From: Octopus sinensis
Lineage: Eukaryota
Length of the DNA: 64,000 nt
NCBI RefSeq assembly: GCF_006345805.1
Contig: NC_043001.1
Span: 117,056,001 to 117,120,000 of the forward strand
Direction of reading: 5' to 3'
Both the position numbers and the translations under genes were made by a program. Position 1 is the stretch's first letter; each line of letters starts with the position of its first letter. Shown here one piece after another: positions 8,631 through 32,623 of the stretch. A model generated the notes under the pieces. The model worked only from the letters and a program-made list of their open reading frames with translations, was not told where the DNA came from and made no database searches.

Positions 8631-10025
8631 AATCCTTAAATCCTTAAAAATGTTTTAGCCCGAAGGCCGCGGCCATGCTGGGGCACCACCGCTGAATGAG
8701 CCACACTAGTTTGTGAATCCACCTCTGATACGTGGCACTTGATCAACAAGGGAGTTCGATGCTGCTGCCCGCTTCCGCGTCTCCTGTCGTGAGGTAGGTT
8801 CATCTGGGACTTCCAACAAGAAGAGATCCAGTTTAGTTTTAAAGAAACCCACATCCACACCATGTAAGTCTCTCAGGCATTTAGGGAGGATGTTGAAAAG
8901 CTGTGGTCCTCTGAAACCCAAGCTGTTGCAGTATCTGGACCTGTATTTTGATGGTGATGTTGGAATCCTTGGCACCACGCAGCGGCGCCCCGTTCTGCGG
9001 TTGGAGTAACTTTGAATGCCAAAGTTTGGGATAAGACCCTCCAGGATTTTCCAGATGTATATACTGCATATCTCTCCGCCTCCGCTCCAGGGAGAAGAGG
9101 TTTAATACCTTCAGTCTTTCCCAGTAGCTGACATTTTGCATTGAGACGATTTTCTTTGTGTAGCTTCTCTGAGTTGCTTCGAGTTCTGCTGTTTGTTTTA
9201 TATTGTGTGGTGACCAAAGTTGGGAGCAGTAGTCCAAGCGGCTGAGGACAAATGTTTTCCATAGGACCATCAGTGTCTCCTTCTCTCTTGTTCTGAAAGT
9301 TCGGAGAATCCATCCAGCTAGCCGTCTGCATTTTATCACCAGATTAGCAATATGCATTTGGAAAGATGCATCATTGCTCATGTCAATGCCCAGGTCACGC
9401 ACTGATTTTGACTCAGGGATTGCAATTCTTCCTGGGCCAGTGTATCCAGTCTTCACGTCATTTACCTTTGTGTGCCAGTAGCGCAGGGCCTGGAACTTAC
9501 CTGCATTAAACTGCATGTTGTTGTCCTCAGCCCACCTGTATATTGTGTCCAGCTCATGTTGCAGATGCGCAATATTTTCAGGGTTCTGTATTGCGTGGGA
9601 GACCTTTGTGTCATCTGCATAGCTAGCAAGGGTGGTCATCGTAGCAACTGAAGGCATGTCTGAAAGGGCCACTATGAACATCAGTGGCCCCAAGACAGTG
9701 CCCTGTGGGACACCGCTTGTTATTTGCGTTTCCCTGGAGGTGGCTCCATTGCTCACAACTGCCTGTTTTCTGTCTTTTAGGAAGTTGTGCAGCCACTCTC
9801 CAAGTTTCCCGCCTATGCCGAGACCACGCAGTTTATGACAGATCATACCATGGTCGACTTTATCAAAGGCTTTTGCAAAGTCAAGATATATTACATCCAC
9901 ATTTGAGCCATTTAGTAGCTGTTTCAACACCCAGTCATAGTGCTGCAGGAGCTGTGTTAGGCAGCCTCTACCTGGTCGAAATCCATGCTGGGTGTCAGAC
10001 AGTAAGTCATTTTCTTCAAGGAACA
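8631..10025 (-). mobile_element. Young 5'-truncated CR1-group LINE with an open reverse transcriptase frame
   Basis: ORF with [36 protein letters not shown] and [11 protein letters not shown]; one frameshift near the C-terminus; tail (ggatttaa)n. Confidence 0.93.
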
Positions 10026-10027
10026 TG

Positions 10028-10086
10028 ATATATATATATATACACACATGTATGTATAAATATATATATATACACATGTATGTATG

Positions 10087-10119
<33 letters not shown>

Positions 10120-10124
10120 GTATG

Positions 10125-10163
<39 letters not shown>

Positions 10164-10168
10164 GTATG

Positions 10169-10218
<50 letters not shown>

Positions 10219-10378
10219 TGTATGTATGTATTATATATATATATATACACACACATGTATGTATGTATGTATAATATATATATACACACACATGTATGTA
10301 TGTATGTAATATATATATAATACACACACATGTATGTATGTATGTATATATATATATATACACACACATGTATGTATG

Positions 10379-13680: not shown

Positions 13681-13741
13681 GTGTTCTGTCCTTACCTTCG
13701 AAACACACTTTGAGTCGAACCAAGGACAGCTGATGAAGGGG
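13681..13741 (+). ncRNA. Candidate non-circularly permuted (pseudoknotted) hammerhead ribozyme, intact core
   Basis: GUGU-U-CUGUCCUU-a-CCUUC-GAAA-CAC-[15 nt]-AAGGACAG-CUGAUGA-a-GGGG: stem I 8 perfect bp, stem III 4 bp, stem II 4 bp (2 G-U). Confidence 0.65.
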
Positions 13742-14028
13742 AATTTTCCTTGTATTGTTTGTCCTGTACTCTGTTTTTTCGTTGTTTAAAAAAACTCCGT
13801 TTCCTTATTTGATTTTATGTTCTCGTCTCTTGTGTTCTATGTTTATTTGTGGTGTCCTGTACTCATATATATATATGTATGCATGTATATATACATGTAG
13901 ATGTAAGTATATACATATATGTATGTATATATGCATATATTTTATTTATTTATTATATTACTATATGACCGAACGCACGCGTTATTTCTCTATTTCTCTT
14001 CTCCAAGTTTTTATTTATATATATATAT

Positions 14029-30620: not shown

Positions 30621-31022
30621 CTAAAATATACTAAACGTACACCGAGGAATTCCTTCCGTAGCTCCTGCGACTTTAGTGCAGTAGCGCGGATGACGCCTGG
30701 TAGCTGTATGTGGTGAACGTGCTCTCAAGGTACACGATTAGGGACATACCCAAAACAAAGTTTGGATACTACATTTTAAAGTCTCCAGTCTAAACTTTGG
30801 TTTTTGAAGTGTATATATATATATATGGAACCTGAAAGAAGCCCGTCATATATATATGTATATATACATGTATGTGTAAGCGTGTGTTTATGTTTGTGTG
30901 TCTGTGTTTGTCCCCCCAACATCGCTTAACAACCGGTGCTGGTGTGTTTACGTCCCCGTAACTTATATGTATGGAATCTAATGCTCTTGGCTTTGTTTTT
31001 CCTTGGGGCTGGCCAGATTGGA

Positions 31023-31088
31023 GAAATCTCAAGATTAATCAGCCGAAATTGCGAGGATGATCCGGTTCTTGACTGAAGATTAAAGGCT
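31023..31088 (+). ncRNA. Weaker candidate non-circularly permuted hammerhead (unrelated primary sequence)
   Basis: gaaaU-C-UCAAGA-uuaauc-AGCC-GAAA-uugc-[14 nt]-UCUUGA-CUGAAGA-uuaaa-GGCU. Confidence 0.4.
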
Positions 31089-31626
31089 TCCAATGACCCG
31101 TCCGTGTTTTTTGTATCGTCTTCTGGATGTTTTGCGTTCTTGTCCCATTTTGTATCTTTATATATATATATATATATATACACATACATACATATGTTGA
31201 ATAAAGTTACAACATGGTCTGGTGTACACGTTTTTTTTTATTATTGTATTAATTTTTTTTTACAATGTTGAAGTGTATTAACACTAAGAAAGAATATTTA
31301 GTAACGTTCATAAAGTTCAATTAGCGGTTCCATACGTTCGTAGTAATCATCAGATTTCAAAATGTATTGACTGACAGTTGAGCTGAGTACTTGACAACTG
31401 ACTTCTTTCTTTTATACCTGAGTTCTTCACAAATGACTTCTTCCTTTTTATACCTTTTAGAAGGCTCCGACAAGCTGAATTTTTCGAATACGGTTTTGAC
31501 CAATCAGCATGCACCTTAAACGTCACGGTTTGCTACGAGCACCGATATTACTGGTATAGATCCCGCCTTTATTTCAACCAATTAGCTTAGACATTGCGAG
31601 ACAAAAAAAATTGCGCTTTATATTCG

Positions 31627-31708
31627 AGGCAATGATGAAGCTATAGGATGTTATTCAGACACTCAACAAAAAGTCCACTGCATCTTATAACAGCAACAGC
31701 TGTAAGCT
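31627..31708 (+). ncRNA. Decayed hammerhead motif, same family as 44146-44226
   Basis: aggc-aAUGAUGA-agcuauag...cacucaa...cacugcau.uuaua.ca-gcAACAGCUGUA-agcu aligns with the reverse complement of 44146-44226. Confidence 0.5.
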
Positions 31709-31763
31709 AACGAGGTTCGCAACATAATCTTTGTTCATCCTGCCTCATCTCTTTTTCTCATAT

Positions 31764-32570
31764 ATGTATGTATATATGCATATACTTATGTATTATTTAT
31801 ATTATTATATGATCGAACGCCACGCATCCTTTTCCAAGTAAGTTTTATATTAATAATTATGATGCGCACTCTTCTACCTTCACTATCTCTTCTTTGTCTA
31901 TCTCTCTCCCTCTCTTGTTCTTCATCCTTTCTGGGTTTTCTCTCCCACCCTTCCCTATTCTTCTCTCCCCTTCATCGTTCCCTCTCTCTCACTCCTCCTC
32001 CTCGACTCTCTCGTCGCTGACACGTGACGAGAGTGAATCCATCTTTCTGACTACTACCTTCGCAAAGACTAAACGTGCTTATTCTGTCTCTTCATAAGCT
32101 CGTCTCCTTAAACGTTCAGAATAATTTTTCCATCGTCTTGGCTTAAAAACCCTCATCGTTTGTTTTTACTATTTTGTTCTCATTGTTCTGTCTTTTACTG
32201 TTTTTACTTTTTTTTTTTGTTCTTACTGTTTTGTTCTCACTGTCCTGTACTTGATACCACTTTCACCCTCCGCAAAAAATCTCAAATTTTATTTAATTTG
32301 CTTTGCGAGAAGGATTGTTTCAACGAAGTCGCGTATTGTCCTTGCCTTCAAAACGTGGAGTAGTTGAAACAGGGACGACTGAAGAAGGGGAATATTGTTT
32401 ATGTTGTATGTCTAGTTTCTCTGTTTGTTTTTTTCGTTGTCCGAAAAAAAAGTTCGCTTCTATGTTTTCGTTTCTCATTTTGTTCAACGTTTTTTTGATG
32501 CCCTGTACCCATATATGCATGTATATATACATATATAGGTAGGTATGTATTTATATGTATGTCTATATGC

Positions 32571-32575
<5 letters not shown>
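31764..32575 (+). mobile_element. ~0.8-kb non-coding repeat unit carrying a permuted hammerhead (32329-32390); same family as 13670-14010
   Basis: Sequence downstream of the core matches the 13.7-kb copy (ggggaat.tt...ttttcgttgt...cctgtac.catatat). The core has G12->A (CpG->CpA). Confidence 0.65.

Positions 32576-32623
<48 letters not shown>

Follow-up and report, generated by a model that had tools for sequence, protein, structure and literature searches.

How is a predicted hammerhead ribozyme with its parts in a rearranged order wired in the genome of Octopus sinensis, which element carries it, and did it cut its own RNA? These questions are raised by positions 32329-32390 of the 64,000-nucleotide stretch of DNA analysed here (the window), where a preliminary description had placed the second copy of a permuted hammerhead. 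We consider it quite likely that the locus is a copy, decayed at G12, of a Penelope-like element (PLE) repeat present in thousands of copies, with a predicted self-cleaving hammerhead whose stem II strand stands upstream of the CUGAnGA core word and whose cut likely set the 5' ends of the reverse-transcribed RNAs. The preliminary description missed three further helices as well as the link to Penelope-like and Naiad elements.

A re-reading of the window sequence found the letters and coordinates reported for this locus to be correct (Table 1); after block G the sequence runs for 11 nt to CAG, followed by GGACGA, CUGAAGA, a single A and GGGG, and the differences from the 13.7-kb copy at 13681-13741 that had been described in stem III, stem I, the cleavage triplet and N7 can all be seen. 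For their interpretation we used 29 close relatives, 25 of which align at G12. The change of a stem I pair from U-A to U-G at 32377 had been counted as compensatory and selected, but 28 of the 29 relatives have A at this position and the change is, judging from these copies, private and due to decay after insertion. The triplet, described as altered from GUU to GUA, is GUA in the window copy, but mostly GUC in its subfamily (22/29, with GUA in 6/29). The loss of G12 by CpG decay holds up: G is present in 19 of the 25 aligned subfamily copies and A in 6, the family thus having GAAA at this position. Since the general base of hammerhead catalysis is G12 (PMC11300833) and A replaces it at 32350, the suspicion that the copy is inactive is supported, and because of this decay it should be unable to cleave as it stands.

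The core motif is far above chance. The pattern CTTCGAAA-N20-32-CTGANGAAGG, which covers the G-block and the core only, has 5,288 exact matches in the 2.72-Gb genome versus 5 for the reversed control, and the complete pattern including the upstream GAAGG has 3,919 versus 0 for the controls. At the family level the words of a hammerhead core (CUGAnGA, GAAA and UH) stand in register with stems I and III, with the window copy failing at G12, and the blocks follow one another as stem III/UH/stem I, then GAAA, then CUGAnGA, which is the order S, G, C as far as stems III and I and the core words are concerned. Among 125 copies with intact core the triplets are GUC (46), GUU (38), GUA (25), AUC (11) and AUA (5), where U-H was imposed by the search pattern and the leading purine was not. 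Over eight core-proximal pairs (one stem I pair was left out), stems I and III are 97.2% paired in 63 copies, namely the 62 of 92 pattern matches that are not 5'-truncated plus the window copy, all chosen by core words and upstream extent and not by stem pairing. Six of the eight pairs change on both sides, none of 500 shuffles reaches the paired fraction, and slid structures attain 8-49%. In a tree built from the flanks only (73 copies chosen with intact stems), the stems change stepwise on successive subfamily branches via G-U intermediates; counts of changed cells reflect shared descent, so that in the CCUUC tree only about six two-sided events are independent. Covariation and flank tree support the proposal that stems I and III underwent compensatory change from one source subfamily to another, and the inference that the fold was under selection in the source elements holds.

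Stem II is another matter. The helix first proposed (CUUC/GGGG) consists of two Watson-Crick and two G-U pairs after an extra A, and probably involves the wrong partner, as the partner of C11.1 covaries upstream. A perfect complement of CCUUC, GAAGG, lies outside the stretch described at first. Four families with unrelated stem II can be compared, namely CCUUC (that of the window copy), UGCUC, GUGUC (the Naiad type, family N) and CAGCC (family J, whose pattern has 8,449 genome-wide matches versus 0 for the controls), with the duplexes GAAGG/CCUUC, GAGCA/UGCUC, GACAC/GUGUC and GGCUG/CAGCC, respectively. In four of four the upstream complement starts with a G opposite C11.1, approximately 21-29 nt before the cleavage base, and across families it covaries at three to four positions. 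A perfect 5-bp partner was found in 94/152, 12/16, 17/23 and 24/40 copies (denominators that take in truncated copies), compared to 0, 1, 1 and 0 in the control window and 0.9-3.6% in shuffles. Mean duplex energies are -6.2 to -8.4 for the upstream strand versus -3.4 to +0.2 after A9, in favour of the former in each of the four, and a partner directly after A9 (offset 0) gives around 0 pairs in all four families. Stem II with its G10.1-C11.1 pair is thus probably formed through the upstream strand. What stands of the permuted hammerhead first described is a core in non-circularly permuted order; the plain S-G-C topology loses its support together with the assignment of stem II.

A plain type SGC hammerhead, in which stem II would be formed with the G-run after one extra nucleotide past A9 and the upstream complement would be an accessory, nevertheless has to be weighed, because the CCUUC and UGCUC families do pair in this offset-1 register (about 1.8 Watson-Crick plus G-U pairs; runs of 3.4-3.7), the CChMVd hammerhead puts up with an additional A at the A9-G10.1 junction (PMC3705267), and types SGC and CSG both cleave in vitro (Eckert et al., 2023, PMC10085705). 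We regard it as very unlikely: family J has 0 pairs in the same register, which by eye also does not fit the coral, hydrozoan-type and arthropod Naiads in the excerpts of the published consensus file, it is the upstream partner that covaries, and the G-run after A9 is explained without stem II by the closing helix P0 (see below). A contiguous stem II with at most one or two inserted nucleotides, as in type SGC, is thus at best weak, and with the SGC descriptors of Eckert et al. (PMC10085705) 0 of the 125 copies match CUGAUGAG and 13 match CUGAUGAUG, of which at most 2 could pass. The motif would accordingly be placed in the SGC/CSG class of hammerheads, yet outside type SGC, its stem II not being contiguous with the core. 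Two further pairings speak against the upstream stem II: family J has a partial partner of 3-4 bp located 5 nt after A9, and in CCUUC copies G8-A9-AGG pairs with CCUUC about equally well (-6.0), a pairing that would be inactive and that may either act as a switch or expose a weak point in the model. Taking the hairpin that follows the core for stem II, as in a canonical type I hammerhead, was rejected because no GAAA comes after it.

Within the CCUUC subfamily some copies (loci L245, L263, L290, L296 and L298) have UU inserted after A9, and retain both the stem II strand upstream and the partner CCCCU. Another repeat (L154, minus strand, 7461, and L338, ~1460) has a core in canonical order in which A9 is followed by one more A; its stem II, GGCUG/CAGCC, is that of family J, to which the repeat is possibly related.

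Table 1. Features of the window, all on the forward strand, numbered from its first nucleotide.
Feature	Positions	Strand	Remarks
Subfamily A copy	13681..13980	+	Core intact; 5' truncation lies ~5 nt ahead of the cut predicted after U13685
Family J motif	31007..31079	+	Third motif in the window; stem II GGCUG/CAGCC, H 31028, G12 31045, C3 31073
3' tail of preceding truncated unit	31759..31845	+	Partial tandem, pseudo-LTR-like; 88% match to tail of the 13.7-kb copy over 68 nt
Subfamily B non-autonomous repeat unit	31846..32604	+	Runs into (TA)n
P0, 5' strand	32266..32269	+	CCCU; predicted partner 32386-32389
Hairpin Pa	32270..32308	+	Ends directly before G10.1
Stem II, 5' strand	32309..32313	+	GAAGG (G10.1-10.5); detached from A9; 5/5 Watson-Crick pairs with 32345-49
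Interaction helix, 5' strand	32315..32324	+	10 bp with 32363-32372
Block S	32329..32341	+	Stem III 3' strand UCGCGU 32329-34; GUA triplet, with the cut predicted after A32335; stem I strand UUGUCC 32336-41
Block G	32345..32358	+	Stem II strand CCUUC 32345-49; AAA 32350-52, core GAA with G12 changed to A (32350); stem III strand ACGUGG 32353-58
Interaction helix, 3' strand	32363..32372	+	
Stem I strand and core	32373..32385	+	GGACGA 32373-78; CUGAAGA 32379-85 (C3-A9)
P0, 3' strand	32386..32389	+	AGGG, pairs with CCCU 32266-69; directly after A9; overlaps the stem II first proposed

Three further helices are predicted around the core. Hairpin Pa, which ends exactly before G10.1, reaches a score of at least 10 of 14 in 81/101 CCUUC, 6/12 UGCUC, 10/17 Naiad-type and 11/24 family J copies and shows two-sided changes, while a shifted-hairpin control was uninformative; in the window copy A32308 is a private mismatch in this hairpin, with G in 27/29 relatives. 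In copies with a good hairpin, P0 with at least 4 bp directly after A9 was found in 63/81 (CCUUC), 4/6 (UGCUC), 2/10 (Naiad type) and 0/11 (J), the last family having it in 8/11 with a 2+2 spacer, so that support for P0 is weak in the latter two families; shifted controls gave 0.0-1.1 pairs in CCUUC. The partner of P0 precedes the hairpin, and within the 18 nt before G10.1 no partner above shuffles was detected (mean z -0.1 to -0.6). The putative interaction helix would join the segment that follows the upstream stem II strand to the one that precedes stem I; its mean z is -2.3 in CCUUC (n=93), -1.5 and -1.6 in two other families and -0.2, not above shuffles, in the Naiad type. Unprompted, RNAfold recovered P0, Pa, the interaction helix and stem III in the window copy (fold z -1.67, 13/200 shuffles being as good), and only parts of this skeleton in four other natural copies (z -3.1, 0.2, 0.3 and -1.1). 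From these helices we infer a hammerhead core that has two abutting helices set between A9 and G10.1, with P0 containing both ends of the RNA. An intact natural copy that extends from P0 to P0' is found in L004 at 1614-1744 on the minus strand (about G000:C5:76047767-76047897). The predicted order would read P0, Pa, stem II strand, interaction helix and stem III/UH/stem I in the first half, and stem II/GAAA/stem III, interaction helix, stem I/CUGAnGA and P0 in the second, as if the CSG/SGC ring of Eckert et al. had been cut open at A9|G10.1 and the gap filled with P0 and Pa, two neighbouring helices that would hold A9 beside G10.1.

The same pairings could in principle form between two RNAs or two tandem units, as in dimeric minimal PLE hammerheads, instead of as a triple pseudoknot in one strand. 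Penelope hammerheads have been proposed to act as dimers (PMC4209133), tandem units are common in the octopus repeat, and the Poseidon hammerhead needs its own protein in order to cleave (PMC11167929); we find this reading unlikely, since RNAfold places P0, Pa, the interaction helix and stem III of the window copy as a nested skeleton in one strand, stem III has 4-6 bp as opposed to the 1-2 bp that forces dimers, and single strands of types SGC and CSG cleave during transcription (Eckert et al., 2023, PMC10085705).

The repeat that carries the window copy belongs to a dispersed superfamily of non-autonomous Penelope-like units of about 750 bp (~700-830 bp) whose 3' tail is fixed and whose 5' ends are truncated to varying extents; the units occur in tandem and inverted copies and have (TA)n as neighbour. 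At three loci (L230, L249 and L279) an inverted tail at the 5' end was read by eye. 5' truncation, partial tandems, inverted 5' copies, a tail and microsatellite neighbours are marks of Penelope-like elements (Craig et al., 2021, PMC8557442), and the repeat bears the marks of a non-autonomous member. In tandems the tail runs straight into the next unit, and the family is therefore non-autonomous; the tail-to-start junction upstream of the window copy recurs in L004 and L056. Relatives of the window unit are 84-91% identical over the searched 231 nt and are spaced by ~700-830 bp in tandems, and no protein homology was found for the unit. Neither was a reverse transcriptase (RT) frame contiguous with CCUUC, UGCUC or J copies present in 208 upstream flanks, nor did blastn of the window-copy unit against the Naiad 3' UTR give a useful match, and the frame that defines a Naiad, which begins with GIY-YIG, ends with the RT and precedes the 3' repeat, was not seen for the CCUUC family. 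Family N (GUGUC), by contrast, represents a Naiad 3' end: its motif, sought within a 1.5-kb flank, lies 3' of the RT on the same strand at 10/30 RT loci, it matches by eye the 3' ends of Naiad_Obim and Naiad_Ovul, and locus L303 matches the Naiad_Obim consensus, again by eye. Twenty more divergent Naiad-like RT loci had one family-N motif and no CCUUC motif. Judged by ribozyme architecture, a Naiad would be the likeliest relative of the CCUUC subfamily. Cephalopod Naiads have been called long inactive (Craig et al., PMC8557442), which contrasts with the 93-96% identity of the subfamily A copies.

Two candidates for an autonomous partner were rejected. A PLE with C-terminal endonuclease beside L010 is separated from it by microsatellites and has a minimal type I hammerhead at its own 3' end, and (TA)n intervenes between L109 and a second PLE fragment upstream of it. 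Locus L109 (34-1005) contains a fragment of another PLE family with C-terminal endonuclease, ~28% identical to the L121 protein, and an in-sense match lies upstream of L408. Loci L152-L171 represent an abundant PLE family with C-terminal GIY-YIG and long open frames (6,658 first-look candidates), which has a minimal type I hammerhead 3' of the ORF with a core that mostly starts with U instead of C3. At L070, L082 and L088 (G000:C2, ~153.458-153.462 Mb) there are at least four tandem and two inverted units of the UGCUC family, and L008 (706-1254) holds a fragment of a Pif1 helicase 2B domain (PF21530), probably of Helitron-like origin.

According to Craig et al. (2021, PMC8557442), Naiads have no canonical hammerhead, although matches termed "HHR_core" and "HHR_half_core" are listed, the half cores being left uninterpreted there. 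Reading by eye the excerpts of the supplement, we recognised the split form in 10/54 Naiad consensus records (Beroe, with a weak stem I, three Acropora, two Octopus and four without visible header) and the plain CSG form in 6/54, three from Nippostrongylus (Naiad-1/2/3_Nbra) and three without visible header; the nematode-type 3' ends of these six read by eye as CSG with an interaction helix. P0 and the hairpin are clear in the coral records and in the four unlabelled ones of the split form. In the bivalve, hemichordate and fish part of the file none was recognised in excerpts in which line breaks can hide words. On these comparisons, the split architecture is likely to be the missing ribozyme of Naiads that were thought to lack one.

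The 5' ends of the insertions bear on cleavage, as copies were picked by anchors 3' of the core, which leaves their 5' ends free to vary. Among the first 78 of 3,547 CCUUC matches, 14 have their 5' end at -2..+10 of the predicted cut (1.08 per nt), 3 at -30..-3 and 6 at +11..+30, and 26 run past -300 (p 3e-9 for the pile-up versus a uniform distribution). For family J (the first 50 anchored copies of 1,826 matches) the figures are 11 at 0..+10, 1 at -30..-3 and 6 at +11..+30, with no end between -17 and -1 (p 7e-8). The ends are spread over ~13 nt rather than fixed at one base and have a shoulder to +30, and most copies run through the predicted cut site. The pile-up just 3' of the predicted cut suggests cleavage in vivo, and its sharp upstream edge would fit templates that were cut at H17 and copied to the end with the loss of a few bases; stalling of the RT is a weaker explanation. 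The broad spread and the shoulder further 3' could also be produced by enzyme stalling at a hammerhead-derived but non-catalytic structure, for example an RT binding site, and for Poseidon insertion in vitro proceeds without need of hammerhead cleavage and no RNA-seq reads ended at the cut (PMC11167929). We give this possibility little credence: unrelated families retain CUGAnGA and GAAA although they differ in every stem, and in two families the pile-up stops sharply at the predicted cut and not at the 3' edge of the structure, the place expected for a stall.

If the element does cleave, read-through RNA from tandem units would fold the motif, G12 and G8 would carry out the cleavage as is established for the hammerhead class (PMC11300833), the cut would free a unit with a new 5' end, and the RT of an autonomous Penelope-like element would copy the freed unit starting from its 3' tail. 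Contigs assembled from four sequencing runs presumed to be of RNA cover the motif, but resolve neither its ends nor its strand.

Compared to the SGC and CSG types of Eckert et al. (PMC10085705), the octopus motif shares the core letters, the crossing of stems I, II and III, the short linker from stem I to stem II and, putatively, an interaction helix that flanks the stem I and stem II strands. It differs in that block C is split, with the stem II strand upstream and P0 and the hairpin at A9|G10.1, and its block order is none of the six of that study, in which the CUGAnGA block C and its stem II strand were assumed to be inseparable. Examples given there come from metatranscriptomes and metagenomes and in no case from a eukaryote genome, with only one bacterial GCS candidate from the genomes of known organisms and only two CSG sequences, both from metagenomes. 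In the pseudoknot (PK) hammerhead (PDB 8YDC, PMC11300833) a long-range pairing takes the place of most of helix II with activity retained, and unlike in the octopus motif A9, G10.1 and C11.1 are on one strand and the block order is circular. With Naiads (PMC8557442) the window-copy family shares partial tandems, inverted 5' copies, the tail and (TA)n neighbours, and differs from them in being non-autonomous. Metazoan non-LTR retrozymes and the minimal hammerheads of PLEs (PMC7229834, PMC4209133, bioRxiv 10.64898/2026.07.22.740005) are likewise short, non-coding, PLE-derived units with one hammerhead each, in tandem or dispersed; these are of type I (CGS) in units of mostly 150-450 bp, whereas the octopus units measure 700-830 bp, carry a fixed 3' tail, are heavily truncated at the 5' end and are non-circular in topology. 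In the literature searched, which covers few subscription journals, neither Naiads nor octopus had been reported to carry a permuted hammerhead and there was no precedent for a break or a helix insertion at A9|G10.1, and a term look-up in PMC3088659, PMC7936874, PMC10162972 and PMC13725137 returned neither.

On balance we lean towards a seventh natural wiring of the hammerhead, opened between A9 and G10.1 and rejoined by a pair of helices, which together with CSG would be the hidden ribozyme of Naiads in several invertebrate phyla, present in more than ten thousand copies here and bearing the footprint of self-cleaved RNA as a template of retrotransposition. If true, non-circular RNA permutation, so far a matter of anonymous metatranscriptome contigs, would reach into a major family of animal transposons, and the split would break the assumption that CUGAnGA and stem II form an indivisible block. 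It would also overturn the view that Naiads lack hammerheads, part of the basis on which hammerheads have been regarded as mere parasites of Penelope-like elements (PMC8557442), and the pile-up of 5' ends would bear on the role of the ribozyme in retrotransposition in vivo.

Two further motifs are present in the window (Table 1). The subfamily A copy is without the upstream stem II strand, Pa and the 5' strand of P0. The family J motif, absent from the preliminary description, 1.3 kb from the window copy and belonging to an unrelated family, has an intact core and one mismatch in stem III. With Rfam covariance models, 30950-32480 gave 14 matches up to E 10, not one of them to a hammerhead family, and there was none among the 150 listed of 369 matches in the whole window; the matches were dismissed as microsatellite-driven miRNA and similar noise. 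On the minus strand, 8709-10230 holds a fragment of a LINE-type reverse transcriptase (PF00078, E 4e-18).
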